From: Eledone cirrhosa
Taxonomy: Eukaryota
DNA length: 64,000 nt
Direction of reading: 5' to 3'
Assembly: GCA_964016885.1 (NCBI GenBank)
Contig: OZ024743.1
Location: forward strand, 90,458,001-90,522,000
The notes below the pieces were generated by a model. It was not told the origin of the DNA and searched no databases. It saw only the letters and a list, made by a program, of their open reading frames with translations. Positions 7,450 through 61,967 of this stretch are shown here, one piece after another. Numbering within the stretch: position 1 is the stretch's first letter; every line of letters begins with the position of its first letter. Both the position numbers and the translations under genes were made by a program.

Positions 7450-7530
7450 TTGCTGGATTCACCATGTATGATGGAGACCCTAAAGACTGTTGACAGGAAG
7501 ACATTTTACAAAATTGCTGATGTTATGCAA
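7450..7530 (+). CDS. TAF7: TAF7-like exon A (TAFII55 N-terminal domain), internal exon, phase 0/0
   Basis: Acceptor tctttctag| and donor |gtaagg. Translates LLDSPCMMETLKTVDRKTFYKIADVMQ, matching the TAF7 motif [27 protein letters not shown]. Confidence 0.9.
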
Positions 7531-7884
7531 GTAAGGGCTAGCATTTCAATCTTAAAATTGAATGTAGATAGGAGTTTTATCGGGGGCAAATTGGCAGGGT
7601 TGTTAGAACATCAGATGGAATGCTCTTTTTAAATCGATGAGGGATTTAGTAGATTTATTAATTATTTCATTTACTAATATAGTAACTTAACATATAGTTC
7701 TTATATTAAATGATGTCTGGAAGATCTTAATTTAAATAGGAACCCTTTAAAATGGGTGATATTATTTCATAGAACCAGAACAGGTTTTTAACCTGGCTAG
7801 TATGAGAAGGATTAATTGAACCCTCTAACAACTAAACCAATTTGATTCCTTTAGACTTATGTCCTAAATTAAATTATTTTTCAG

Positions 7885-7981
7885 CTGCTAATTTGCAGTG
7901 TTGAAGATGACACAAGCCAAGATGAAAATGAAAGTCCACGTAAGAAAGACAAAGACAAGAAGTACCATTATCCTCACGGAA
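7885..7981 (+). CDS. TAF7: TAF7-like exon B, phase 0/1
   Basis: tttttcag| ... |gtaagt. LLICSVEDDTSQDENESPRKKDKDKKYHYPHG matches TAF7 MLVS...KKKDKDKEKKFIWNHG and is in frame with exon A. Confidence 0.88.
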
Positions 7982-8639
7982 GTAAGTAACTTTATGAAGT
8001 TCAGACTGTAGCATGACTGTGTGATTAAGAAGTCTGCTTTGTTATCGTATTGGGGTGCTATACAACTGTGTGACATCATCTACTAGAGTTTCAGGCCAAC
8101 CAATGGCTTATGAGTGGATTTGGTAAACAGAAACTATACAAAGTCCAGTGCATATATATATATATATATATCATCATCACCATTTTACATCCATTTTTCA
8201 CACTAGCATGGGTTAGGCAAGTTATCCTCTTGTGAGCAATGCCAGGTCAGGTGACCATGTCTTGTTCATACAGAACTGATTTGGGCTTGGTTTCTACAGT
8301 TGGCTTCTTTTCCTAACACCAACTGCATTTACAGTGAGTACTAGGTGCTTTTTGTCATGTCACCAACACGACCATTTTACAGTGAGTACTGGATGCTTTT
8401 TGTCATGACACCAACACGACCACTTTACAGTGAGTACTAGATGCTTTTTGTCATGTCACCAACACGACCACTTTACCGTGAGTACTGGATGCTTTTTGTC
8501 ATGTCACCAACATGACCACTTTACGGTGTATATATATATTCATATATGGTTGACAGCTGAGACCCTGTGATAAATAGGCGAAACTCCAGAGTAACAAGAC
8601 TCACCATTCAGCCTTAATAGAATGGATATATATATAGAT

Positions 8640-9878
8640 GGAGGCACATGGCTTAGTGGTTGCAATCGAAAGGTTATGAGTTCAATTCTCAGACCGGCTG
8701 ATGTGTTCTTTCCTTGAGCAAGACACTTTATTTCACATTGCTCCAGTTTACTCAGCTGTAGAAATGAGATGATAGGACTGGGTCCCTATCATTCCACTGC
8801 AAAATGGTCGTGGAGGTGCCACGGCAAAAAAGCACCCAGCCCACACTGTAAATGAGGTTGGTGTTAGGAAGAGCATCCAGCTGTAGAAATGTAGCTCCTT
8901 CTACTGCCCAGATGGTTCTATAGAAATAGTGGACACTTTCCGTTACCTGGGTGACAAAATCAGCAGTGGTGGTGGGTGTTCTGAAAGTACAGTAGCCAGA
9001 GTTAGAACGGGATGGAAAAAGTTCAGAGAGCTTATACCGCTGTTGGCCACAAAAGGTTTCTCTCTGAAAATGAAAGGCAGATTGTATGATGCCTGTATAC
9101 GAACGGCAATGCTACATGGCAGTGAGACATGGGCATTGCGTGCAGAGGACCTGCGCAGACTGGAAAGGAACGAAGCATGCATGCTCCGTTGGATGTGTAA
9201 TACACAAACGGCAAAATATAAATGAATTAAGTGAGAAATTAGGAATAAGAAGGATCAGATGCTGTTTACTTGAGGGAAGATTATGTTGGTATGATCATGT
9301 GATGCGCATGATAGACAACAGCTGAATAAAAAAGTGCAGGGCGATCAAAATTGATGGAAGTTACAGAGTAGGTAGACCCAGAAAAACCTGGGACAACATG
9401 ATAAATTCTGACCTTGCACACTTGCACCTCTCTAAGACAATATCACCGAATCGAGATCTTTGGCACCACACAGTAATACAGAAGACCCGCCTTGCCTATG
9501 TACAAAGTGAAACCTACAGTCAGTAGGTCCCTACAAACCAAACAAACACCCCAACACACTACCCCTACACCACCCTTTCTCTATAAAGTTATGTTGGTAC
9601 CACAACATCCAGTCCAAACTAATGAGATCTTGTAGGTGTCACGACAAAAAAACACACTGTCCACACTGTAATGTGGTCGTGTAGGTAACACGGTAAAAAG
9701 TTCCCAGTCCACACTGTAAATGTGGTTGGTGTTAGGAAGGACATCCAGCCTTAGAAAAACTGCCAGATAGTCCTATAGGAGCGAGACACGGTCACCCGAC
9801 CAACCTTGCCTCAAGTGGGACAACTCCCGTCTAACCCATGCTAGCGTGGAAGATAGACGTTAAACAATGATGATGATA
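8640..9878 (+). mobile_element. SINE family 2 head/body (8640-8890) joined to an RTE-A 3' fragment (8891-9878)
   Basis: tRNA-like head TGGCTTAGTGG..GAGTTCAATTCTC, then DTFRYLGDKISSGGGCSES..LHGSETW..GRPRKTW, 3' UTR and (ATG)n tail. (TA)n on both sides. Confidence 0.85.
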
Positions 9879-9897
9879 ATTATATATATATATATAT

Positions 9898-12800
9898 CAT
9901 CATCATCATCATCATTTTACGTCCGCTTTTCCCTGCTTGCAAGGGTGGGACGGGTCTTATTTAGCACAACATCTCTCCACTTGTCACGGTCCTTCGTCGT
10001 CTCCACCGTGAGCTTCAGTGATCCGAGGTCTGTTCTCACCACCTCTGCCCATGTTTTTCGTGGTCTACCTCTACCACGTCTTCCTTCAACTGGCATTTCC
10101 TGACACTTATTCACCCATCAGTCATCCTCCATGCGCATTATATGTCAATACCACCTCAGTCTCCTCTCGCACACTACATTCTATCCCTCTCAGATACAGT
10201 TTCTCTCTCAACACATTCATGCTGGGTCGTTCACGCACATTGACATTGCACATCCAATGGAGCATATTTGCCTCATTTCTCTCCAGCCGTCGCACATCCT
10301 CTGCAGCTGCTGCCCATGTCTCACTACCATGCAGCATCGCGCTCCTCACATAAGCATCATATAACCGGCCTTTCGTACGCAGAGAGAAACCCTTCTTCGT
10401 CAGCAGAGGAAGTAGCTCCCTAAACTTCTTCCAACCCATCCTTATTCTAGATACTATGGCCTCGGAACACCCCCCTCCCATGCTAATCTGATCTCCTAGG
10501 TACCGGAAGCTATCTACCACTTCTATAGCACCCGCCTGCATTTGAAAAATGTGTCTATCAATGCGACTTCTACTGTCTAATTTCCCTGTACATCTACTGC
10601 ATACGTATTTCTCCCTACCTGTTAGTTTGCCTGCTATCCCACTACATCTCTTGTGTACCCAGGATCTGCATTGTGTACATTTTATAGAATTTATGCCAGT
10701 TCCTTTTCTGCATATCGAACATTGTCCTCTTTTCTACTCATCAACACTTTTGTCTTAGCTACGTTCACTCTCAGTCCTCTTGTTTCCAACTGCTGTTTCC
10801 ATAGCCAGAATTTATTCTCTAGCTGCTCTACTTTTTCTGCTATAAGAACCAGATCGTCAGCATAGAGAAGTTCCCATGGACAGCCAGTCTTAAACTCCTC
10901 TGTTATGGCTTGGAGGACTATAATGAACAAGAGCGGGCTGAGGACCGAACCTTGATGTACTCCTACTTGTATCTGGAATTCCTCACTAAACTCCATTCCT
11001 GACTTTACTGACAGTACCTTTGTACAAAGTTTGCACTATCCTCACAAGCCATTCCTCAACACCTAGTTTCCTTAGGGACCACCAAATGACAGATCGAGGT
11101 ACCCTATCAAAGGCCTTCTCTAGGTCAACAAAGGCTAAGTATAGTGGCTTATTTTTCTCTTAGAACCTCTCTTGTAATTGTCTCACTAAGAAGAGGGCAT
11201 CTGGTATACTCTTCCTAGGCACAAAACCAATCTGCATCTCATCTAGTTTAGCCCTTTCTCTAATTAGTTGTGCTAATATCCTTTCTGCCACTTTCATAAC
11301 CTGATCCATCAGTTTTATACCCTATAATTGCTACTCTCCAGAGCATCCCCTTTATCTTTGTAGCAATTTATGAGAATACTGCTGCACCAGTCTTTGGGTA
11401 TGACACCACCATAAATAGCCTGATTGATGATGCATGCAACCAGTTTAGTGCCTACGTCCCCTGATGACTTCAGCATCTCAGCAACTATCCCTGATGGTCC
11501 AGCAGCCTTACCATTTTTCATTTTCTTAATCGCCTCTTGGACCCTATATTCGTCAATCTCAATAGCTGGTCCATCTGTCAGATCTTCTAAGGGTAATTTC
11601 TCTCTCCCATTCATTCTCCACATTCATCAGTCTCTAATAATGACATTTCCAGGCCTCCTTTTTCTGATCATTCATGACACTAAGTACACCGGCATCATTC
11701 CGGACACATTTATCTCCAACAACATCCTGATTTGCATTGACACACTGCCTTGCAATGTGGAACACTGCAGGCCTCTGATCTTCCCGTCGCAGAACATTGG
11801 CAAACCTCCTACTCTCAGCCTCCCTGCGTGCTAAGTACACCTGACGTCTAGCTTCTCTCTTAGCAGCTGTATATCCTTCTCTACTCCCACCCTTTTTCCA
11901 AGCCTTCCATGCTAGTCTTTTGTATCTAATGGCCTTATCTACTGTGCTGTTCCACCACCAGGTCACTCTCGGTCTGGTTGGAGCTTTGCTCCAGCCACAA
12001 GTTTCATCAGTAGCCTGCAGTAAGTTGTTACGTGAGAAATTCCAGTTATTATCTATGTCATACGTCTCTAAATCGTCTTCTTTTTCATCATACACATTTT
12101 GAAGGGCTTTCCTAAATTTGTATTTTAGTGAAAAGTCTTTTAGCTTCCAGACCTTTCTGCTCCACACCTTCCTGTATGTCTCATTCCATCTGTTGCTTAC
12201 TGAGATATCACTAATGACTAACCTATGCTGTGGGGTACATTCTTCCCCAGGGTATGCCTTGGTATTAGACACCATCTGCCTGTCCTGCTGCCTAACTAGT
12301 AAGAAGTCAATCTGGCTTATGGGCTCGCCTGATTTGTAGGTTATTAGGTGGTTGGCAGGTTTCTGGAAGTTAGTGTTGCAAATAGTCAGTGTACTTGCAT
12401 CACAAAATTCAAGAAGTCTCACTCCATCTTCATTTCTTGAGCCGTAACCGTGCCCACCATGTACCCCTGTGTAACCATCCTGGAGCTGTCCAACATGACC
12501 ATTGAAGTCCCCTGCTAGCATAACGATGTCTCCGTCCTCTGTCTTTGTGGTTGTTTGTAAAAGTTGCTCGTAAAAGCAGTCTTTCCCTTCCTTACCTAGG
12601 TCTGCTTGGGGAGCATAGGCAGAGATGATTGTCAGTAGTCTCCTGCCTACAACTAATCTAAGCTTAATTATTCGATTACTAACTCGAACTACCTCTATTG
12701 TCTTATTTATCCATCTCTCAGCCAGGAAAATGCCTACTCCCCCTAACCCATCATCCTTACCTACACCAAAAAGCTTATAGCTAAGATGTTTGCCTGCGAC

Positions 12801-13138
12801 TAGTCTCGCAGAGGCACCTCTCCATCTCACCTCTTGCACGCAGCATACATCCACATGCCTTCTCTCCAGCATCTCCGCTATTTCAGCAGATCTACCTCTG
12901 ATAGTGCCAACATTAAGTGTTGCAACTCTGAGATGCGACGTCTTCATATTTTGTTGTTCCTATATACTTGTTGCTGTGCTAATAATCATTTTGGCATTGA
13001 TACACTGGTTGGATGCCCTTCTTAACACCACTATACAGCATGGACTGGGTGCTTTTATTTGTGCCACCAGCACTAGAGAGGATGTCTTACTAGAATCAAT
13101 GGCCCTCTCTACCCCTCCATTTTACAGCATGGTCATAA
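9898..13138 (-). mobile_element. Full-length RTE/RTE-X LINE family B, copy 1 (disrupted)
   Basis: MKTSHLRVATLNVGT..CVQEVRW (APE), GDFNGHVG, QGSVLSPLLF..LLYADD (RT), C-terminal Cys cluster, GRPRKTW..TRPTLASREKRT, (GAT)n tail. Nonsense codon at 11634 plus frameshifts. Confidence 0.95.
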
Positions 13139-13148
13139 AAAAAATATA

Positions 13149-13179
<31 letters not shown>

Positions 13180-15225
13180 AGAATTAAAATACTAGAGTGC
13201 ATTGGAGTAAAACACACTCGTCGTATTATAGAAATGACAGTATAAGATATAGCTCAATGTAATACAACAGAGCCGAAAAATTAATAAGGCCTTAATTATG
13301 GCCATGCGAATGTCTAGTCTTACGCGACCCCAGATTGATGTTATATTAGCCGCCCGTAGGACTCATCAAATTCGAAGATACACTTTGGACGCGTAAAAAC
13401 ACACCCAACAACTTTGACGTTACAATGGGTTCGAGTGATTTGGCGCAGGTAACTGATCTTGTTGGGCTGTTCCTCTTGAATGAACTGTATGTTAGCTTTC
13501 CGCACCTTAAAGGGGGACTTTATCGTGACGATGCATTATTTGTGATAAACTCTAGCACTAATAACATTGAGCATAATAGGAAGAAGCTTTATAAATTTTT
13601 AAAAAATTTTAACCTTTCGATCACGATTGATAAGAATGATAGAGCAGTCAACTTTTTAGATGTGACATTAGACTTGGTCACTAATAGTTATAAACCCTTC
13701 CACAAACCAAATGAGACACTCTCTTACGTTAACCCTAATTCCAACCACCCTAAATCTATGATTAGTTCTATAATTAATGGTGTATCTAATAGAATCTCCA
13801 CACTCTCTAAGGATATAGGAATATTTAATTCACATGCAGAGTATTATAATAATGCCCTAGCTAACTCTTGTTACTCTGGTAAAATACATTTTAAGGAGGA
13901 CGGCCTTGGAATGACTCCGATCACCCATAGTAACGTAATATCCCATAATATGGCCTTGAATGGGAGAAGAAAATATAGGAATCATAGAAATCTTGTAGAT
14001 ATATCCAAACCGAACCCTAAGCTTAACTACCGAAATAGTGAGTCCAACGGTACGCATTTCGAGTTTGGTTCTAGGGAACGGGATAGGCGCTCTGAACGTT
14101 CACCCAGTGGTAATGTTTTAACTGCTTCTAATAGTATCACTTCAACTGTTCCTCGTATTAACCCGGATCCTATTAATAGGATACCACATTACGGTAGAGA
14201 TAGTAAACGTAGGAATAGGAGGAGACTCAATACTTACTTTAACCCGCCTTTTGATCATGAAGTATCAACTAATATCCCTAGGTCTTTCTTTTCTATTTTA
14301 GAGAAAAATTTCCCTCCTACTAATAAATATCATGGTATCTTTAATAAAAATGTAATTAAACTCTCCTTCTCTACCACCCCTAACATTAATTCTCATCTAG
14401 CTAGCACTAACAATAGGAAAATTAGGGATAGCTACTTCTCTTGCGTACTGCTAATCTAGATAGCTCTATTGATAACTTACCGCCTGAGCAGATCTTATCT
14501 TATAATAATAATAACACTAGGAATAATGCATTGCGTAATCAGCTAGTCACTAGTACCCGGAAGTGTAACTGTAGATTAAGTAATAACTGCCCCTTAAATG
14601 GTCACTGCCTCTCTATGAACATTGTTTATGCATGTGAAGTTAAGACTAATTCTTCTTGTAGCACATATATAGGCTCCACATCGACTACTTTTAAAACTAG
14701 GTTTAATTCACATATTTCTAATTTTAAGCATATCAAGTTTAAGAACTCTACTTCTTTGGCACACCATATCTGGGATTTAAAAGGGGCCGGTATACCATAT
14801 AGCCTAAATTGGCGAATTGTAGCACACTCTAATCACCTATCAACACACACTAAATTCTGTAATCTTTGTATCCTAGAGACCCACTCTATAATTTTCTCTA
14901 GGAACATATTGCTTAATAGAAAATCTGAGATATTTTCTTCCTGTCCGCATGCCATTTCTAATTCTTTCTTCTATTATAGACCTAAAAGTTCTAGTAGTTT
15001 AAACCGTATCCATTAGCTGCTATATTTCCCTATCTCTTTGGTTTTAGTTTATTATTATTACCATTATTATTAGTTTTCTACGGTTGTTTTGATTTTCGAA
15101 TTTTAGTTTTCATAGTCTTATTAGCTACCTTACCATATCTATCATCTGAAACATTATTACATTTTTACTCAATATTATCGCCTTGTAAGTTTGTATCTTA
15201 TTGAATAGTTTAAATTTTTGAGTCT
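13180..15225 (+). mobile_element. Penelope-like element, Naiad-type (RT + GIY-YIG endonuclease), 5'-truncated and frameshifted
   Basis: FEDTLWTRK..FDVTMGS..LVGLFLL..GLYRDD..NFLDVTLDL..KPN..SNHP..FNPPF. Second frame: KCNCR..CPLNGHCL..IVYACEV..YIGSTSTTFKTRFNSH..CNLCILE..LLNRKSE..CPH. Starts at a (TA)n tract. Confidence 0.9.
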
Positions 15226-15227
15226 TA

Positions 15228-15545
15228 ATCCTGTGTCATGACCTTTGAGAGGTGCAATTGTGCAAGGTCAGCTTTTCTAGGTCTTCCTCTTCCATAGATT
15301 CTTTCATCTTTGATCGCATTGCACCTTTTTATACAGCTGTCATCCTTCATATGCATCACATATCCTTACCACTACAATCTCCTATCCTGCACACTGCATC
15401 TGACTCTCTTATGCCCAATTTCTCTCTTAGTTCATTTATGCTTTGCTGTTCATATATATTATACCATGAGAACATGCAAGTTTCATTTCTTTCCAATTTT
15501 TGTAGGTCCTCTGCACACATCACCCAGGTCTCACTTCCATGCAGA
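15228..15545 (-). mobile_element. RTE 3' coding fragment
   Basis: Reverse strand encodes HGSETW..LQWxGYVMHMKDDSCIKRC-like RTE C-terminus, homologous to 4680-5030. Confidence 0.75.
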
Positions 15546-15843
15546 AAATCATCTTTTAGTTCATCTGATAGTCCCGATTATGGAACATATGCAGAGATAA
15601 TAGTTGCAGTTGTTCTATCCTAAATTTAATGATTCTGTCATTTACTCTGTTTACCACGATTACAATATCTACTCATTTTTAATACCTACTTCGCTTAGAT
15701 GATTCATGCCAACAAAAAGTTTTCCAACCTTGTCTCATCAGGAGAGAAGTACTACACGGTAGATTTTTCTTAGGAGACATATATAGGGTAGATTTCTAGT
15801 GAGGAATATATAATATATAACTTTATCTGATTTATTCGTTTTA

Positions 15844-16120
15844 CAAAGTTTATAATGGTATTGGAATGAAGTAGTGTGGTGGAATATTAAATGTTAAGTG
15901 TTAGTTGAACAAGTACTTTCATGCTTTCGCAATCTTCAGGTTCATATTCTGTGGTGACAGTCAAGTTTGCAATTTTCAACTGTGTTGAAAATTGCAAACT
16001 TGACTGTCACCACAGAATAAGAACCTGAAGATTGCGAAAGCATGAAAGTGCTTGTTCAATTAAAACTTAACATTTGGTATTCTACCGTGCTGTTTCATTC
16101 TAATACCATTATAAATTTTG
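15844..16120. repeat. 277-bp palindrome (137-bp arms, TGT loop) with a minimal hammerhead motif in each arm
   Basis: Position p pairs with 31964-p throughout: 12 G.T wobbles and 2 true mismatches. GAAC-CTGAAGA-TTGCGAAAGCAT-GAAAGT(A/G)CTT-GTTC at 16021-16057 (+) and 15907-15943 (-). Confidence 0.92.
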
Positions 16121-16310
16121 AAGGATTGTAGGTGGAACGAGTAAATCAGACAAAGTTGGAATTCCTTTTATTAATATATATATATATATATATATATTTC
16201 CTGTATGAGCAAGGCATGGTCAGCCAATCAGACACTGCCCACAACAGGACAACCCATCTAACCCATGCTAGCATGGAAGAACGGACGTAAAACGGTGATG
16301 ATGATGATGC

Positions 16311-16610
16311 ATTGGCCTTGCAATCGAAAGGTTGTGAGTTCAATTCTCAGACTGGGTGATGTGTTGTTTCCTTGAGCAAGATACTTTATTTCACATTGCT
16401 CCAGTTTACTCAGCTGTAGAAATGAGATGATAGGGACTGAGGTCCATATCATTCCACTGTAAAGTGGACGTGTAGGCGTCACGGAAAAAAAGCACCCAGC
16501 ACTCACTGTAAATGAGGTTGGTGTTAGGAAGGGCATCCAGCTGTAGAAATCAAGCCAGAATCAGTTCCCGTCCCACCCTTGCAAGCAGGGAAAAGCGGAC
16601 GTAAAATGAA

Positions 16611-16640
<30 letters not shown>
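16311..16640 (+). mobile_element. SINE family 2 with RTE-B tail
   Basis: B-box GAGTTCAATTCTC, CCTTGAGCAAGATACTTT core, tail CCCACCCTTGCAAGCAGGGAAAAGCGGACGTAAAATG followed by (ATG)n. Confidence 0.85.
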
Positions 16641-16642
<2 letters not shown>

Positions 16643-16938
16643 TTTTCTAGGGAGAGAGATGAATGTAAATGCACATATATATATATATATATGTTTAGTT
16701 GAAAATGAACGAACAAAACACAGGAGGCAATTGTACACAGTTATATTAGGTTCACGCTTGGTGGAAGTGGTGGAGGTTTCAACGTTTCAGACAGAAATCC
16801 TTCAAAACAAATAAATAAAAAGGAATTGGAAAAATGAAATCAAAGATATATATATATATACTTACGGTAAACATTGATGCAATTCAATTCAAGCACTCTA
16901 CGTACTTTTTCCACATAGGAATAACGGAGAATATTTAG

Positions 16939-17138
16939 AATAAGAAAAGGCGAAGTAGGTTCAAATGTTAAAGTCCTTTATTGATAAGGCTGTGATTACT
17001 TATTATGTAAGAAGCTGTCTGATGATGTCATGGCACTGGTCAGGCAGAATCGCTTGGCCACTGTCGTTATTGAAATATATATCACAACCTTATCAATAAA
17101 GGACTTTAACATCTGAAACTACTTCGCATTTTCTTATT
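16939..17138. repeat. Inverted repeat, 58-bp arms around an 84-bp spacer, between (TA)n tracts
   Basis: 16939-16996 is the reverse complement of 17081-17138, with 4 mismatches. Confidence 0.85.
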
Positions 17139-17189
17139 ATATATATACACATACATATGTAGTACAATAACTTTCAAGGATAAATACAA

Positions 17190-17715
17190 TGAATTTATGA
17201 GAGAAGCATAAACAAACTGAGAGAGAAACTAGGCATAAGCAGAATAGGATGCAGTGAGGAAGAGAGGAGACTGCATTGGTATAGACATGTGAGGCTTATA
17301 TAGGATGACAGCTGTATAAAAAGGTGCAGAGTGCTTAAAGTCAATGGAGTGGGGAGACCCACGAAGACTTGGAATGAGGTGATAAAAGCTGACCTTGCTC
17401 AATTGCACCTCTTAAAGACGATGACACAGGACTGAAATCTCTGGCATTATGCAGTAATACAGAAAACCCACTTTCCCATTGGCACAGGCTGAAGTTGAAG
17501 TATACATATATATAATATGCACCACACCCTCCAATACATCTCTCAGGCTGTAGCATATGTCCAATGAAGCCTCCTACCCACACTGTAAAGTGGTCGTGAT
17601 GGCAACACAGAAAAAAAGCACCCAGTCCACATTGTAAAGTGGTCGTGTAGGAGTCATGACAAAAAGCACCCAGTCCACATTTTAAATGTGGTTGGCGTTA
17701 GGAAAGGCATCCAGC
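17190..17715 (+). mobile_element. RTE 3' fragment
   Basis: Homologous to 48460-48980 (RRLHWYRHV..DDSCIKRCR..GRPTKTW) plus 3' UTR modules. Confidence 0.75.
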
Positions 17716-18015
17716 CAAGCTCATGGATGTTATCCAACCATCTTGCTTGGGATCTGCCCCTGGGTCTCCTACCTGTTGGTTTTGCCCATAAAATCAGTCT
17801 AGCAATTCTTTCCTGAGACATTCTAACCACATACCCATAGTATCGCGGCTATGATTTCTCAATGCGGAGAAGTAGTGGATCTACCTTGAGTGACTCTGAT
17901 CTCCAAGCTACGCACTCTATTGAGTAACGTTACTCCAAAGACCCTTCGGAGGAATCCCATTTCAGCCACTTGTATTTGCGATTGCATTCTTTCGGCCTTA
18001 CCCAAGATTCCTGAC
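17716..18015 (-). mobile_element. Fragment of a further RTE-clade (Expander-like) LINE
   Basis: Same sequence family as 36575-37230 and 28160-28425 (ILWAKPTGRRPRGRSQARWLDNIHE). Confidence 0.75.
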
Positions 18016-18067
18016 ATCTTCAATGTATGATTTTAATGTTTTCTTAAATATTTTTTTTTGCTCATAG

Positions 18068-18126
18068 TTTGTCCATCTTTAAAAAATGTTAGAAAAAGAA
18101 GATTCCGGAAAACCTTAAAAAAGAAG
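18068..18126 (+). CDS. TAF7: TAF7-like exon C, phase 1/0
   Basis: ttttgctcatag| ... |gtaatt. With the split codon A+TT it reads ICPSLKNVRKRRFRKTLKKK, the TAF7 signature ITLPLKNVRKRRFRKTAKKK. Confidence 0.92.
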
Positions 18127-20453
18127 GTAATTACAACCTCTTGTATATTTCTACTGTTTTGGAGTGAGGTTTGTGTCTATGTCTTTGTAAGTGTGTGTAT
18201 CATCATCATCATCATCATCGTTTAACGTCCATCTTCCACGCTAGCATGGGTTTGGACGGGAATTTTCACACTTGAAGCAAGATTGGTTGTCTTGCTTGTA
18301 TAGGACTGTCTGGCAGGTTTTCTACGGCTAGATGCCCTTCCTAACACCAACCACGTTTACAGTGTGGACTGGGAGGTTTTTACCATGTTACCTATACAGC
18401 CACATTACAGCGTGGACTCTGTGTTTTTTTTGTCATGACACCTACACGACCTCATTTATTTAGGACTGGATACTGTGGTACCAATGTATGTATGTATGCA
18501 AGGCGGTGAATTGACAGAGTCATTATAATGTCAGATAGAATGCTTTATGGTATTCGTTTTGGCTCTTTTCTATCTCAGTTCAAATCCCACTGAGGTCAAC
18601 TTTACCTTTCATCTATTCATGGTCGATAAAAAAGTACCAGTCTAGAACTGGTGTCCATTCTTCCTCTGTATCTCTTTCTCACTGCAATTATCTAACTCTA
18701 TCATTCTTTAGAAGAAACCTACTGTATTCATACCTGGAGAGGAGATGGGCTCTGCTAAGTTTTAAAAAAATACCCTAGAAACGCTGTATGCCAATACAGT
18801 GCCCTACGACTCACTCAGGAGTTACGGGACCATGCATGCATGGATGTATGTATTTACATGTGCTTTATTTAATAATTGTTTCCACTTTAGGCACAAGGCC
18901 AGCAATTTGAAGTGGAAATGAAAGTCGATCAAATCGATCCCAGTACATTACTGGTGCTTTATTTTATTGGCCCTGTAAGGATGAAAGGCAAAGCTAATCT
19001 CGATGGGATTTGAACTTAGACTGAAAAAGATTGTAACTCTATGCTGCAAAGCATGGTGTCCGACTCTCTACCAATAATGATTTCTTTATTTCTCCTGAAT
19101 TTTCAGTAAGGTATATTTTTTGTGTGTATTTTATAAATACAATATCTCTTATTTCTCCTGAAGTTAGAATAGGGTTTGTGTGTGTATGTGTGTGTTTTAT
19201 AAATACATCTGATGTGTTTTATTTTATTTCAATACATATGGTGTATTTTTCTTTAATTTCAAGTGTATGAATAAGTTTTGTAAATACAATATCTCATATT
19301 TCTCCTGAAGTTAGAGTATATGAGTGTGTTTTATAAATATAACATCTCATGTATTTCTCCTTAATTTCAATTATATGTATGTGTGTTATAAATACAACAT
19401 CTCGTACTAGTTAGTAAAAGTGTAACCCTGTATGAATTATGTCCTTTGAATGGTTTAGGAAATGCCAGTGGAAGGAAGTCGCAGTAAAGGTAGACCAAGA
19501 AAGACCTAGGCAGAGGTTGTGAAACCTCAAATCACTAACAGAAGTGATGACAAAAGATCGCATGCTGAGAAGGACCCATGCAAGCATGAAAAAAGCAACG
19601 TAAAAACAATGGGGATGATGATGATGATGATGACTTCAGTCAGTATTCCAACACTTTAGTGAAGTCACTCCTACCTGTGAAAGTCCTTCCACTCTGCTAC
19701 ATTGTGGCTGCAATCTATATTATAGTGGAACAACTGTTTCGATGAAGAGTCTTCCAGTTGTTTGATCAATGGAATGGCTTGCTTGTGAAATTAACATGCA
19801 AGTGGCTGAGTATTCCAAAGACACATGCCCTCTAAATGTAATTCTCAGGGAGATTTAGTATGACATAGTGTGTGATAAGGCTAGAACTTTGAATTACTAG
19901 TACAGTTCATCTGATGAGCTTCCAAACAGTTTCTGCTACCCAATTTCACTCTTAAGGCATGGATCAACCTGAGGCTATGGTAAATGAAACTTTCCTAAGA
20001 TGTCATACAATGGGATTGAACCCATGACCTAATGGTTGTGAAGTGAACTCCTTAACCATTCAGCCATGCTGCCTCTACTATATTATAGTAACTCTACAGC
20101 AACTTCACCATCATATAATGTCCATCCTTCCATGTCCATCCTTCCATGCTGGTATGGGTTAAATGAGTCGTCATAGACAAAGTCAGTACTTCACTGGAGC
20201 CACTAACACCTCAGACAGGCCAGGGATCCACATCTCGCATATGTTCCAAAACCTTACAGAGTGTACTGGGTGCATTTTATTGTGGCACCAGCACTAGAGA
20301 GGCTTTATGCCCTTGACACAGCTGAAGGATCCTCTCAATCTATCTTTAGCAAGTTTCTTCTTTGGCTGGATGTCCTTCCTAACACCAACCACTTGTAAAA
20401 GAAGACTGAAAAAAAAAGCAGTGTAAAAAGTATATTTTTGTTTTGTATTTTAG

Positions 20454-20664
20454 TATACAGAACAACCAGATATTGAAAAAGAAGTAAAGCGACTTTTTAG
20501 AATGGATGCCGAAGCTATTGATGTAAAGTGGGAAGTGTTAACTGAAGAAGAGAAGACACTGTCAGAAAGCAACAGCCAAAACCAAATTGTGGAAGCTAGT
20601 GGTACTGCAGTACAAGCTGAAGATAACATATATACAGCTGATTCCAGTATTAGTCTGGATATAG
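20454..20664 (+). CDS. TAF7: TAF7-like exon D, phase 0/1
   Basis: tattttag| ... |gtaaga. YTEQPDIEKEVKRLFRMDAEAIDVKWEVLTEEEK matches TAF7 YIESPDVEKEVKRLLSTDAEAVSTRWEII. Confidence 0.92.
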
Positions 20665-23832: not shown

Positions 23833-25459
23833 ATCATCATCATCACCATTTTACGTCCATTTATTCCACGTTAGCATGGGTTAGACTAAACAATATTGGT
23901 TTCTGATTTAGGCACAAGGCCAGCAATTTTAGAGGAAAAGGAAAGTCGATTAAATCGACCCCAGTGCATTATGGGTACTTTATTTTATCAACCCCGTAAG
24001 TATGAAAGGCAAAGCTAACCTCGGTGGAATTTGAACTCAGAACATAAAGGGCAATAACTCTATGCTGCTAAGCATGTTGTCCAATGCTCTACCAATTCTG
24101 CCAATTTACTGCCCTATATGTATATAACCATCATCGCCATTTTACATCTGTTTTGCCTGCTAGCATCGTTTGGAGGAGTCATCATAGACCAAAACAGTAC
24201 TTAGATGCAGCCATTGACCTCTCAGATGGGCCATTGGCTGCATCTTACTTACATTCCTGTACTCCACAGAGTGCACTGAGTAGATTTTATAGTAGAACCA
24301 GCACTAGAGAGATTGTTATGTCTTTGACACAACTGGAAATTCCTTTCAACCCTTTGTTTGGCAAGTTTTCTACAGCTGGATGCCTTTTTGATCACCAACG
24401 ACGCATTTTATTGTAGCACCAACACTAGAGAGGTTGTTGTGCTTTATATATATACATTACCAAACACTGTTATTTATATCATAATTTAATTTATATATGT
24501 CTCATCCTCCTGAGACTCCTCGGAATTAACCAATATATTTTCACTTACATCTTTCTAGTTTTTATATTTGAAAACGAATTTCTTTATATGTATATGTGTG
24601 TATATATATGTGTGTGTGTGTGTGTATACAATTTGCCATTAATCAAAACATACTCTTGTGTGTTTAATCAAACTGAACTGTATGTTGTGTGAAGGTAATC
24701 CGGCATATGAGAGCTAAGGGATAAATGTTTATCAAATGCAAAATGACATCCAAACTGACAAGTTTATATTGTTTTCATCTTCCTTCATCAAAGGACCTAG
24801 ATTCTGCAAAAACTTGATGCTTTTGTTGATTCGATGAAGAAATTATTAGCATATTTCTATATTTTAGATTGTTTGAAGCATTGTGTAAAGTGTAGAAAAT
24901 AGAGTGATTTATTAGAAAGCTACAGAAATTGGGACTTATATGGTAAAAATAATAACAAAGATGTTGAAATGTTACCTTGGAATTGTTTAATAGTCCTTAA
25001 TATTTTGGGATAAATATCCCTTCATCAAAAGAAGGGTTGAGGAAACTAATTTGGAGCAGGATGTCTTGCATTATTCTTATGCTGGCATTTTTTAACACAA
25101 AGGGAGGAAATATAGAAACATGGTAATCACAGAAACATGGTAATGTCACGGATATGTGTGACAAAAGAACTTTGAGAAACTATATTTATTTTTTTAACTG
25201 TTAGTCAATCAATGATAAACATTGATTGCTAGCTAAATTATTTATAGAAATCTGGAAGTATTTTTTCAATGCTGTAAGAGGTATGTGTTCTAATCTGAGA
25301 TCTGATTGTATCTATTTTTTAAGTTTAATGAAATGTTGTACAAAGTCTGTTTATATTAGCCATATATACATACACATACACATGCATGCACATACACATA
25401 CATACAACTTGAGTTGTTTACATTTTTAAAGCCTATTTCATTGTTTAATCTCTCTTCAG

Positions 25460-25704
25460 AACAAGTTTTTGGTGAACTTAGCAGTTCCGATGATGAAGAC
25501 AAAGATGTCAACATAATGGACAGTGGTGAAGAAGAAGCTGCCATTATGTCTAGAGGGGCAGAAGCTGCCCAACAGCTTATTGATGGCCTCAGTCAGTCTG
25601 TTGGCAATGACCAAGAATCTGTCTTACTTTCAAATAATGACACAGAAGGAGGATGTGAAGAGGATTTCTCTATTTCTCGACTTTACCAATCAATAGATGA
25701 CTGA
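25460..25704 (+). CDS. TAF7: TAF7-like exon E (acidic region), ending at TGA
   Basis: ctctcttcag| acceptor, phase 1 compatible with exon D. EQVFGELSSSDDEDKDVNIMDSGEEE matches TAF7 EIFNDLSSSSEDEDE..DINIID. In-frame TGA at 25702-25704. Confidence 0.82.
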
Positions 25705-35615: not shown

Positions 35616-35784
35616 GGAAACAGAAAACTCCAAAGAGACAAGCACATGGATAATTCTCACTCATTGGCTGTCTTCTAGTGAATAGTCCTGTCTTATAAAG
35701 CATCCAAATTTTTAATGATCCCTAGAAGAAAGCCAATGAACAGGAATTGTCTATATATTTGTTTCTTTCGAATTTTCTGTTTCC
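35616..35784. repeat. Old imperfect inverted repeat (63-bp arms), MITE-like
   Basis: 35616-35678 versus the reverse complement of 35722-35784: ungapped, 13 mismatches. Confidence 0.75.
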
Positions 35785-55163: not shown

Positions 55164-56091
55164 AGTAAGTGTCTTTTCATACAAAGAACATTATTTTTTG
55201 GATGGTGTGTTAAAACATTGAATCTGACTAAGATGTCCATTCTCCATCAACATCCTTCGCCACATGAAACTACATTAGCAAGACATTCTAGAAAAATACA
55301 AGGAATTAAACCTGCAACCTTACATTCATGAGCCGCCTTAACCACTAGGCCATGTGCCTTCTCCTGATGATCTAGAATATTTTTTCCACTATCTTGTTTT
55401 ACATAGCTGAAATATAAGTAATGTCATTTTATACCTATTTGTTGAGAATCAATGTAAAATTTTAAGTTATAATCTAAACTACATTATATATATTTCATAC
55501 ATGACATATCTCATATTTCATATTCTTTCACTGGTTTCAATCATTAGAAAGTGGCCATGCTGGGGTCACCAACATTTTTATTTTATTTTATTTCTTATTT
55601 TTGATGAAAAGCTAAAACAGAGACAGAGATATATATATGTGAAGTTTCCGTCAACCAAATCCCACTCACAAATATTGCTTTACCTGGAACTATAGTAGAA
55701 ATCAGCTGCCTTTGGTGACACACAGGGGGCAGTAAATGTGGAGCCACTTAGTTGTATAGCAAACCCATTAACTACACACCCATGCCTACATCATTACATA
55801 CATATTTCATGCATTAAATCATCATCATCACCATTGTACTTCCATTCTTCCATGTTAGCATGGGTTAGATGAGTTGTCCTGTTGTTAGACCAGATCAGAT
55901 GACTATGTCTTGCTCATACAGAACTGATTTTGGCTTGGTTTCTACAGCTGGATGCCCTTCCTAACACCAACTTTACAGTGAGTACTGGGTGCTTTTTACC
56001 GTAGCGCCTGCATGACTACTTTACAGTGTGGACTGAGTGCTTTTTATTGTGACACCTACACGACCACTTTATAGTAGGAAGAGGTTGGGAG

Positions 56092-59000
56092 CATATCTTG
56101 CACTTCATCCATTACATATCTTACACTTATATACATTACATATCTTACACTTCATCCATTACATATCTTACACTTCATCCATTACATATCTTACACTTCA
56201 TCCATTACATATCTTACACTTCATCCATTACATATCTTGCACTTCATCCATTACACATACATTACATATCTTACACTTCATACATTACATATCTTACACT
56301 TCATCCATTACATATCTTATACTTCATCCATTACATATCTTACACTTCATCCATTACATATCTTGCACTTCATACATTACATATCTTATACTTCAAACAT
56401 TACATATCTTACACTTCATCCATTACATATCTTACACTTCATCCATTACATATCTTACACTTCATACATTACATATCTTGCACTTCATCCATTACACATA
56501 CATTACATATCTTACACTTCATCCATTACATATCTTACACTTCATCCATTACATATCTTACACTTCATACATTACATATCTTACACTTCATCCATTACAT
56601 ATCTTACACTTCATCCATTACATATCTTACACTTCATCCATTACATATCTTACACTTCATCCATTACATATCTTACACTTCATACATTACATATCTTACA
56701 CTTCATCCATTACATATCTTACACTTCATCCATTACATATCTTACACTTCATCCATTACATATCTTACACTTCATCCATTACATATCTTACACTTCATAC
56801 ATTACATATCTTGCACTTCATCCATTATACATACATTACATATCTTACACTTCATCCATTACATATCTTACACTTCATACATTACATATCTTGCACTTCA
56901 TCCATTACACATACATTACATATCTTACACTTCATCCATTACATATCTTACACTTCATACATTACATATCTTGCACTTCATCCATTACACATACATTACA
57001 TATCTTACACTTCATCCATTACATATCTTGCACTTCATCCATTACATATCTTGCACTTCATCCATTACACATACATTACATATCTTACACTTCATCCATT
57101 ACATATCTTGCACTTCATCCATTACATATCTTACATTTCATCCATTACATATCTTACACTTCATCCATTACATATCTTACACTTCATCCATTACATATCT
57201 TACACTTCATCCATTACATATCTTACACTTCATCCATTACATATCTTACACTTCATCCATTACATATCTTGCACTTCATCCATTACACATACATTACATA
57301 TCTTACACTTCATCCATTACATATCTTGCACTTCATCCATTACATATCTTACACTTCATCCATTACATATCTTACACTTCATCCATTACATATCTTGCAC
57401 TTCATCCATTACATATCTTACACTTCATCCATTACATATCTTACACTTCATACATTACATATCTTACACTTCATCCATTACATATCTTACACTTCATCCA
57501 TTACATATCTTACACTTCATCCATTACATATCTTACACTTCATCCATTACATATCTTACACTTCATCCATTACATATCTTACACTTCATACATTACATAT
57601 CTTGCACTTCATCCATTATACATACATTACATATCTTACACTTCATCCATTACATATCTTACACTTCATACATTACATATCTTACACTTCATCCATTACA
57701 TATCTTGCACTTCATCCATTACATATCTTACACTTCATCCATTACATATCTTACACTTCATCCATTACATATCTTATACTTCATCCATTACATATCTTAC
57801 ACTTCATCCATTACATATCTTACACTTCATACATTACATATCTTACACTTCATCCATTACATATCTTGCACTTCATACATTACATATTTTACACTTCATC
57901 CATTACATATCTTACACTTCATACATCATACATTACATATCTTACACTTCATCCATTACATATCTTATACTTCATACATTATATATCTTACACTTCATCC
58001 ATTACATATTTTATACTTCATACATTACATATCTTACACTTCATACATTACATATCTTACACTTCATCCATTACATATCTTACACTTCATCCATTACATA
58101 TCTTACACTTCATACATTACATATCTTGCACTTCATCCATTACACATACATTACATATCTTGCACTTCATCCATTACATATATTACACTTCATACATTAC
58201 ATATATTACACTTCATCCATTACATATCTTACACTTCATACATTACATATCTTACACTTCATACATTGCATATCTTACACTTCATCCATTACATATATTA
58301 CACTTCATCCATTACATATCTTACACTTCATCCATTACATATCTTATACTTCATACATTACATATCTTACACTTCATCCATTACATATCATACACTTCAT
58401 CCATTACATATCTTACACTTCATCCATTACATATCTTGCACTTCATCCATTACACATACATTACATATCTTACACTTCATACATTACATATCTTACACTT
58501 CATCCATTACATATCTTATACTTCATCCATTACATATCTTACACTTCATCCATTACATATCTTGCACTTCATACATTACATATCTTATACTTCAAACATT
58601 ACATATCTTACACTTCATCCATTACATATCTTACACTTCATCCATTACATATCTTACACTTCATACATTACATATCTTGCACTTCATCCATTACACATAC
58701 ATTACATATCTTACACTTCATCCATTACATATCTTACACTTCATACATTACATATCTTACACTTCATCCATTACATATCTTACACTTCATCCATTACATA
58801 TCTTACACTTCATCCATTACATATCTTACACTTCATCCATTACATATCTTACACTTCATCCATTACATATCTTACACTTCATACATTACATATCTTGCAC
58901 TTCATCCATTATACATACATTACATATCTTACACTTCATCCATTACATATCTTACACTTCATACATTACATATCTTGCACTTCATCCATTACACATACAT

Positions 59001-61495
59001 TACATATCTTACACTTCATCCATTACATATCTTACACTTCATACATTACATATCTTGCACTTCATCCATTACACATACATTACATATCTTACACTTCATC
59101 CATTACATATCTTGCACTTCATCCATTACATATCTTGCACTTCATCCATTACACATACATTACATATCTTACACTTCATCCATTACATATCTTGCACTTC
59201 ATCCATTACATATCTTACATTTCATCCATTACATATCTTACACTTCATCCATTACATATCTTACACTTCATCCATTACATATCTTACACTTCATCCATTA
59301 CATATCTTACACTTCATCCATTACATATCTTACACTTCATCCATTACACATACATTACATATCTTACACTTCATCCATTACATATCTTGCACTTCATCCA
59401 TTACATATCTTACACTTCATCCATTACATATCTTACACTTCATCCATTACATATCTTGCACTTCATCCATTACATATCTTACACTTCATCCATTACATAT
59501 CTTACACTTCATACATTACATATCTTACACTTCATCCATTACATATCTTACACTTCATCCATTACATATCTTACACTTCATCCATTACATATCTTACACT
59601 TCATCCATTACATATCTTACACTTCATCCATTACATATCTTACACTTCATACATTACATATCTTGCACTTCATCCATTATACATACATTACATATCTTAC
59701 ACTTCATCCATTACATATCTTACACTTCATACATTACATATCTTGCACTTCATCCATTACATATCTTACACTTCATCCATTACATATCTTGCACTTCATC
59801 CATTACATATCTTACACTTCATACATTACATATCTTACACTTCATCCATTACATATCTTACACTTCATACATTACATATCTTACACTTCATCCATTACAT
59901 ATCTTACACTTCATCCATTACATATCTTGCACTTCATCCATTACATATCTTACACTTCATCCATTACATATCTTACACTTCATCCATTACATATCTTATA
60001 CTTCATCCATTACATATCTTACACTTCATCCATTACATATCTTACACTTCATACATTACATATCTTACACTTCATCCATTACATATCTTGCACTTCATAC
60101 ATTACATATTTTACACTTCATCCATTACATATCTTGCACTTCATCCATTATACATACATTACATATCTTACACTTCATCCATTACATATCTTACACTTCA
60201 TACATTACATATCTTGCACTTCATCCATTACATATCTTACACTTCATCCATTACATATCTTATACTTCATACATTATATATCTTACACTTCATCCATTAC
60301 ATATTTTATACTTCATACATTACATATCTTACACTTCATACATTACATATCTTACACTTCATCCATTACATATCTTACACTTCATCCATTACATATCTTA
60401 CACTTCATACATTACATATCTTATACTTCATACATTACATATCTTACACTTCATCCATTACATATCATACACTTCATCCATTACATATCTTACACTCCAT
60501 CCATTACATATCTTATACTTCATACATTACATATCTTACACTTCATCCATTACATATCTTACACTTCATCCATTACATATCTTACACTTCATCCATTACA
60601 TATCTTACACTTCATCCATTACATATCTTACACTTCATCCATTACATATCTTGTACTTCATACATTACATATCTTACACTTCATCCATTACATATCTTAC
60701 ACTTCATCCATTACATATCTTACACTTCATCCATTACATATCTTACACTTCATACATTACATATCTTATACTTCATACATTACATATCTTACACTTCTTC
60801 CATTACATATCTTACACTTCATACATTACATATCTTATACTTCATACATTACATATCTTGCACTTCATCCATTACATATCTTACACTTCATCCATTACAT
60901 ATCTTACACTTCATCCATTACATATCTTACACTTCATCCATTACATATCTTATACCTCATACATTACATATCTTACACTTCATCCATTACATATCTTACA
61001 CTTCATCCATTACATATCTTACACTTCATCCATTACATATCTTACACTTCATCCATTACATATCTTACACTTCATACATTACATATCTTGCACTTCATCC
61101 ATTACACATACATTACATATCTTACACTTCATCCATTACATATCTTACACTTCATCCATTACATATCTTACACTTCATACATTACATATCTTACACTTCA
61201 TCCATTACATATTTCATACATTACATATCTTACATATTTTACATATTTCATACAATATATATCTTATATATTTCATACATTGCATATCTTGCGTATTTCA
61301 TACATTACATATCTTGCGTATTTCATACATTACATATCTTGCGTATTTCATACATTACATATCTTGCATATTTCATACATTACATATCTTGAGTATTTCA
61401 TACATTACATATCTTATGTATTTCATACATTACATATCTTGCGTATTTCATACATTACATATCTTATGTATTTCATACATTACATACATATCTTA
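56092..61495. repeat. 5.4-kb satellite of a 23-bp unit (CATATCTTACACTTCATCCATTA), with 11-bp half-units and a 25-bp variant at the right end
   Basis: Directly visible. The unit contains no TAA/TAG/TGA, so all three + frames read the same 23-aa repeat. Confidence 0.98.
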
Positions 61496-61967
61496 TCATT
61501 TGTTTCTGAAATGTCATACAGGCCACATAGTCAAATGTCTAGAGTGGCAATAGCTTCACCAGTAACAGGAACATGTTTTGTTGTTTTTTGTCTTACACTC
61601 ATTACACCTCGTTTATATTTTATTTAATATTAATTATTTAAAACATTTTTTTTTAATTTGCAACTCTAATGTGATAAATATCTGAGTACTAATGAAGGTT
61701 TGTAACCTGTTTCTATGTATGCCACACATATATATGTATAGTTGACCATTTATAAATACCTATGTATAATTTTAAGCCAGATATATAGAATGTTTAACAT
61801 TATCTTTTACTAAGGCAAAATATTTATTTTTTAAAAAACATCTCTGCATTTTGTAAGAGGCAATTAAAGGGTTGGCATCAGGATGGACATGCAGCTGTAA
61901 AATATTGTTTCAAAACGTCCTGTTCAACCCATACCATGGAAAACGGACATAAAAACGATGATATATA

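Follow-up and report, generated by a model that had tools for sequence, protein, structure and literature searches.

A hairpin in an intron of a TAF7-like gene of Eledone cirrhosa carries 17 A-to-G changes on its + strand, distributed over both arms. We put at roughly 70% the probability that it is the DNA copy of one ADAR-edited hairpin RNA, reverse-transcribed through the loop and inserted at this site. That the A-to-G changes originate from ADAR is, taken by itself, very likely.

Architecture of the hairpin and its element family

The window is the whole 64,000-nucleotide stretch of DNA that was analysed, and unprefixed positions below refer to it. The focal hairpin consists of two arms of 137 nt each (15844-15980 and 15984-16120), 90% complementary and separated by a 3-nt loop. 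The arms lie where the original prediction placed them, and its 277-bp span falls short of the full extent, which is 15819-16178. The features of the hairpin are:

15819..15980, - strand: left arm, inverted terminal repeat copy (repeat positions 1-174), without the last 21 nt and 12 internal nt
15981..15983: loop, 3 nt; the arms meet head to head at repeat position 1, the joint of most family hairpins
15984..16178, + strand: right arm, complete terminal repeat (pLTR, 195 bp) from an endonuclease-bearing Penelope-like element; the 30-40 nt tail is absent
16172..16198: (TA)n tract at the element 3' end, the usual target of the Penelope-like family
15907..15943, - strand: mirror copy of the hammerhead motif, in the left arm; its helix III is unaltered
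16021..16057, + strand: hammerhead motif of the right arm, with stem I, CUGAAGA core, stem II, GAAA and a short palindromic helix III (assigned from the sequence and the available text of PMC4209133)

The same genome contains a large repeat family matching the right arm, and a 24-nt tag of this family was found 8,060 times. Upstream of the repeat, long family copies have a frame that contains a Cys-rich linker and a GIY-YIG endonuclease besides reverse-transcriptase motifs. In one such copy (L016, 2-1177) the open frame has 391 amino acids, with a YLDD-type RT motif read by eye and a Pfam GIY-YIG match above the cut-off (E 6.6e-06), and it ends ~320 nt before the repeat. A Cys-rich linker like that of L016 is common to Neptune and Nematis, according to the accessible part of PMC8557442. 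A hammerhead motif lies within the 195-bp unit, which terminates in (TA)n or a tail of ~40 nt and is often joined head-to-head at position 1. Among 58 family hairpins, including the focal one, the tail is usually on one arm and (TA)n tracts flank the structure. Penelope-like elements are described, in the available sections of PMC8557442, PMC11167929 and PMC4209133, as having 5'-truncated inverted copies, a 30-40 nt tail at one end, microsatellite targets and a hammerhead with a small palindromic helix III. Because the family shows these features, the focal hairpin is what an endonuclease-bearing Penelope-like element ordinarily leaves behind on inverted insertion, and its structure is routine. 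The family is young, with copies 1.6% from the majority. We also considered a non-LTR retrozyme, which the accessible text of bioRxiv 10.64898/2026.07.22.740005 describes as tandem head-to-tail units with a hammerhead in each, and rejected it; the family copies are solo, ORF-linked or head-to-head.

The hammerhead called in the original prediction was found in both arms of the focal hairpin. Its core and stems I and II are present in both arms and in the natural copy L020. In the right arm, where cleavage is predicted from the sequence to fall after 16053, the palindromic helix III is altered by the A-to-G change at 16050, as had been noticed. The earlier suggestion that the wobbles are tied to the cut site is doubtful, since other edited copies carry changes on both its sides. 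An Rfam gathering scan of the window gave no matches. A further hammerhead-like core is located at 15697-15749 (-), just upstream of the focal hairpin and outside the Penelope-like hairpin family.

The host intron and its surroundings

The tblastn exon matches to TAF7-like proteins (~7456-7533, 7876-7980, 18046-18126, 20397-20663 and 25438-25674) are all on the + strand, in agreement with the prediction that this is the pre-mRNA strand. Therefore, the focal hairpin is intronic and lies on the pre-mRNA strand:

7981..18045, + strand: TAF7-like intron holding the focal hairpin (tblastn, borders approximate)

The closest named relatives of the TAF7-like gene are octopod proteins. Pfam found no family in the TAF7-like piece or in the RT-like frame of the window at 13350-14456.

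The same intron holds other repeats. A second, unrelated Penelope-like remnant lies 800 nt upstream of the focal hairpin (13350-15016, +); it comprises an RT end and a GIY-YIG frame (Pfam E 0.0019, below the cut-off), and its protein is ~26-28% identical to L016 in short stretches. Inverted LINE-like repeat pieces at 15229-15443 and 17204-17431 bracket the focal hairpin and could form a second, weaker duplex, in which the wobbles are unskewed (9:14). Elsewhere in the window, a 5.5-kb low-complexity tandem array (56037-61627) is open in three frames on the + strand, probably reflecting a unit with no stop codons.

The arm differences are A to G on one strand

A recount of the mismatches between the focal arms reproduced the reported tally at every left-arm position: the 14 non-Watson-Crick positions comprise 12 G.T, no A.C and 2 transversions. 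The two transversions are unrelated point changes. The control repeat at 35616-35784 likewise gave the reported 5 G.T and 6 A.C, together with 3 transversions, over 64 ungapped pairs. Folding predictions favour the + strand (-204.9 kcal/mol) over the - strand (-171.6 kcal/mol) by 33 kcal/mol.

When 43 other arms supply the column majorities for polarisation, each of the 12 wobbles reads as an A-to-G change on the + strand, six per arm, and none is C to T. The original prediction offered either editing or a selected hairpin as the cause, and this outcome supports the former. With the full repeat as query, the right arm adds five A-to-G changes, at 16120, 16131, 16132, 16134 and 16135, giving a total of 17. 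The changes are located as follows:

15848, 15863, 15871, 15876, 15881, 15904, + strand: six A-to-G changes of the left arm (column majorities), present in public contig X1 record 1
16050, 16076, 16077, 16087, 16089, 16092, 16120, 16131, 16132, 16134, 16135, + strand: eleven A-to-G changes of the right arm, absent from the X1 contigs

The G at 15881 is perhaps not an edit, as it coincides with a variant common in the family. The 17 A-to-G changes compare with 0.67 expected (Poisson P ~1e-18), with no T-to-C change, and the other point changes in the focal copy (4 in ~357 nt) are at background. In that background, counted on 176 other arms (32,217 bases) without the focal locus, L021 and one misaligned arm of L118, A-to-G and T-to-C changes are symmetric (53 and 49, a rate of 0.5% or 0.005 each), and C-to-T changes occur at 1.5% (0.0148).

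This symmetry extends to the hairpins of the family. In the 57 others we counted 91 G.T and 82 A.C pairs, with a maximum of 7 G.T in any one. An apparent family-wide A-to-G excess (36 vs 6) was rejected, as it was gone (53 vs 49) once the query-selected sites and L021 had been removed. The asymmetry expected in other copies is seen in rare hyper-edited ones (5 of 268 arms, in a set enriched by the queries) and not family-wide.

In the focal copy 16 of the 17 changes follow A or T; the lack of 5' G is not significant there (P 0.07), and only 2 of 17 changes precede a G, which is no enrichment. The 66 loop-proximal pairs contain none of the 17 changes (P 0.001, or 0.012 when only A preceded by A or T are considered), which counts against our preferred reading. 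The loop-proximal part is richer in G+C (0.38 vs 0.22), and composition explains the gap only partly. The other hyper-edited copies are also thin near the loop, with 6 of 35 events vs 34% of A.

Three further loci are A-to-G hypermutated

Queries built on the edited sites led to three further loci with 11-19 A-to-G changes:

L021, C2:327165339-737 (L185:4840-5238): 13 and 16 A-to-G changes, 13 of them common to both arms, in element orientation
L129, C5: solo 78-bp piece, 11 A-to-G changes
L175, C3:193858585-779: long copy, 19 A-to-G changes

The number of A-to-G changes per arm is bimodal: 263 of 268 distinct arms have 0-3, and the other five, from four loci, have 11-19. This set is enriched by the edited-site queries, and the rate is at least 4 loci in ~8,000 arms. 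In L175, 18 of 76 scored A are changed inside the repeat vs 2 of 342 upstream (P 1e-12). The changes thus stop at the repeat border and follow the part able to pair.

The 63 events at the four loci have 33 A, 26 T, 4 C and 0 G as 5' neighbours. When each of the 31 distinct sense sites is counted once, G is under-represented on the 5' side (P 0.002) and over-represented on the 3' side (P 0.015). Depletion of upstream G is the ADAR preference across animals, and octopus hyper-editing is among the highest measured, as stated in the available part of PMC5625713. All four loci have changes at repeat positions 148, 149 and 152, and the focal hairpin and L175 share 7 sites besides the one used to find L175 (P 0.001). 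L129 carries the marks of another subfamily, so the recurrence of sites is not simple descent. The shared edited sites look like recurrent targets, with the proviso that their overlap is partly selected because the three other loci came from edited-site queries. A search for the pair 148+149 found no copy with that pair alone. Descent of the focal locus from L021 was rejected, as it lacks the private changes of L021 and its left arm lacks the shared Gs.

Further searches enlarged this set no more. Patterns for antisense-edited arms (1, 6, 9 and 15 matches, the last two patterns being such that they cannot match the focal locus) yielded the focal locus only. We found no copy with a solo T-to-C cluster, the highest T-to-C count outside the focal locus being 4. 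No further hyper-edited locus came from searches at sense sites 120 and 67, and similarity searches with L021 and L175 returned the focal locus as the best other locus and nothing new among the 40 candidates scored for each. The candidates L148, L176-L179 and L188-L190 have 1-2 A-to-G changes only and are not hyper-edited.

The arms of L021 differ by 5 further A-to-G changes on one strand (3 right, 2 left), which may reflect two templates with different edits or editing in a second round. A scan of 560 kb of sequence for G.U/A.C asymmetry covered 130 hairpins, of which two besides the focal one are skewed at P<0.05 (L134:1684-2353, 12 G.T to 2 A.C; L079:283-852, 1 to 9); these belong to other repeat families, are not polarised and contain many transversions. 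The evidence for an A-to-G skew applies to the Penelope-like hairpin family alone.

Public contigs

The original prediction asked for confirmation from DNA, which was obtained for the left-arm Gs; the right-arm Gs are in no X1 contig. Record 1 of X1 (445 nt, depth 23.7) runs from the unique flank through all six left-arm Gs with 0 differences. X1 is a genome-sized contig set and may be the assembled individual. The right arm sits between deep repeats and the (TA)n tract, where coverage holes prove nothing. X1 and the RAD run X12 have mostly A at the right-arm sites. X1-X3 contain 0.62-0.70 of the words, 21% of which overlap right-arm variants, and in X4, from another organism, cover of the unique flank is too patchy to show an orthologous allele. 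Among the sequencing runs listed as containing the sequence none was RNA, an absence that carries no information on expression.

A different pattern was seen in X5 (88 million letters, kind not on record), which has depth 0 at 15674-15833 and leaves the unique flank uncovered. In X5, A is absent at 16050 (depth 200) and at 16131-16135 (depth 587-837) and scarce at 16092, and the left-arm sites are 93-100% A. If X5, present as contigs only, is RNA, this pattern would be suggestive, and only suggestive, of sense transcripts of other copies being edited at the same sites.

Discussion

The following route would account for the focal hairpin. An unedited family hairpin elsewhere would be transcribed in the germline, and ADAR would convert ~13% of the duplex A to inosine in both arms. 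The Penelope protein would then prime at repeat position 195 in a (TA)n target and read inosine as G. The reverse transcriptase would copy the sense arm, cross the loop and stop at position 174 of the antisense arm, slipping twice at short repeats on the way, which would leave the 12 missing left-arm bases. At L021, L129 and L175, copying may have stopped at or before the loop, yielding sense-strand changes only.

Of the three other loci, L021 shows 13 of its changes in both arms, L129 lacks a partner within 4.5 kb, and L175 has an inverted piece nearby with the same Gs. Because of this both-arm, partnerless or inverted-duplicate anatomy, their edits predate insertion, and therefore edited RNA serves as a template in the Penelope-like family. 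The focal locus differs from them in that its antisense arm is also edited on the same strand, and the read-through step is drawn from this locus alone because no second antisense-arm hyper-edited copy was found. No empty site or mother locus was identified for the focal hairpin, which counts against through-loop copying and insertion.

The main alternative is that an ordinary hairpin was inserted first and edited in place, in the TAF7-like pre-mRNA, with the edited RNA templating the repair of its own locus. Such repair predicts that the A-to-G strand is the host transcript strand, as it is; random insertion gives the same agreement half the time, so that its prior is one half. The focal locus is also the sole one found with both arms edited on one strand, and for somatic mutation a hypothesis paper available in part (PMC11817618) proposes that A-to-I changes become fixed by an RNA-templated route. 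The three other hyper-edited loci cannot have arisen in place, which means that an insertion route exists in the family. Moreover, most fresh family hairpins have a tail on one side, which is missing from both focal arms. We therefore regard editing in place as unlikely.

Deamination of cDNA seems less plausible. Here, in one insertion, the right arm would derive from edited sense RNA and the left-arm cDNA would be deaminated in an RNA:DNA hybrid or a DNA fold-back. The + strand of the left arm would indeed be first-strand cDNA in an inverted insertion, and the available text of PMC11817618 discusses ADAR acting on the DNA strand of hybrids. This scheme needs two processes at one locus, and no copy with T-to-C clusters alone was found; we consider it quite improbable.

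Error-prone synthesis, by polymerase eta or by misincorporation of the reverse transcriptase, could also give a strand-coherent cluster. Polymerase eta has an A-to-G bias after A or T, and the 16 of 17 changes that follow A or T fit it as well as they fit ADAR. It is nonetheless very improbable in view of the L175 changes ending at the repeat border, the recurrence of sites at four loci, the sense orientation of the three other loci, the 3'-G excess over distinct sites and the background level of other change types in the focal copy.

An assembly or polishing artefact, to which the absence of the right-arm Gs from the X1 contigs might point, is hardly credible. Contig assemblers readily lose a path of low depth that runs between two very deep repeats. 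Record 1 of X1 links the unique flank to all six left-arm Gs, the same Gs occur on three other chromosomes, and polishing would pull towards the thousands of A-bearing copies.

Selection for a functional dsRNA hairpin, or chance, can practically be dismissed: all the transitions do preserve pairing on the transcribed strand, yet selection on pairing would let C-to-T changes through equally, these have a three times higher background rate (0.0148 vs 0.005) and make up 0 of the 12 polarised differences, and the family is young with its other hairpins symmetric. The original proposal of a selected hairpin as an siRNA or miRNA source fails on the same count, and no function of the hairpin is implied by the copying of an edited RNA.

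Related phenomena are known in other systems. The A-to-G hypermutation that ADAR causes in avian retroviruses (Felder et al. 1994; Hajjar and Linial 1995, as cited in the accessible part of PMC8586724) is alike in that RNA-level A-to-I changes are carried on through reverse transcription. Those viruses are infecting, whereas the present case concerns an endogenous Penelope-like element in an invertebrate germline, at four loci in the assembly. LTR retrotransposons edited on DNA by APOBEC, with G-to-A changes on cDNA, are known from vertebrates and reported absent from 19 invertebrate genomes in the available text of PMC4866542. Both cases involve rare, strand-biased, context-specific hypermutation during retrotransposition, found via the family majority; the Penelope-like changes differ in being A to G, tied to dsRNA and made on the RNA template. 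Palindromic repeats are hyper-edited in RNA, most strongly in octopus and frog (PMC5625713, available part). They share a self-folding ADAR substrate and the depletion of upstream G, and their changes are in transcripts only, in contrast to the genomic DNA changes described here.

The available text of PMC8557442, PMC11167929 and PMC4209133 on Penelope-like elements describes no edited copies or through-loop hairpin copying, and that of PMC6757416 and PMC5974252 contains nothing on ADAR edits fixed in retrotransposon copies. In the literature covered, mainly the main texts of open-access papers, no account was found of ADAR edits having become fixed in copies of Penelope-like elements or of other endogenous retrotransposons.

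The flow of RNA edits back into inherited DNA has often been proposed and seldom shown. The four loci give a direct, scannable signature of it in the animal group with the most editing, and the effect is rare (at least 4 loci among ~8,000 arms). We lean towards a recurring process, in which the Penelope-like reverse transcriptase writes ADAR edits into the octopus germline from edited hairpin templates, and inosine may loosen the duplex for read-through. If our reading is true, ADAR acts in octopus germline cells on RNAs that get retrotransposed. The Penelope reverse transcriptase would accept hairpin transcripts as templates and on occasion pass through the loop, a point relevant to the origin of the unexplained inverted structures of these elements. 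Invertebrate repeat annotation should then allow for A-to-G hypermutants, as it does for APOBEC ones in vertebrates. If the process is recurring, the genome would keep single-molecule snapshots of germline RNA editing.
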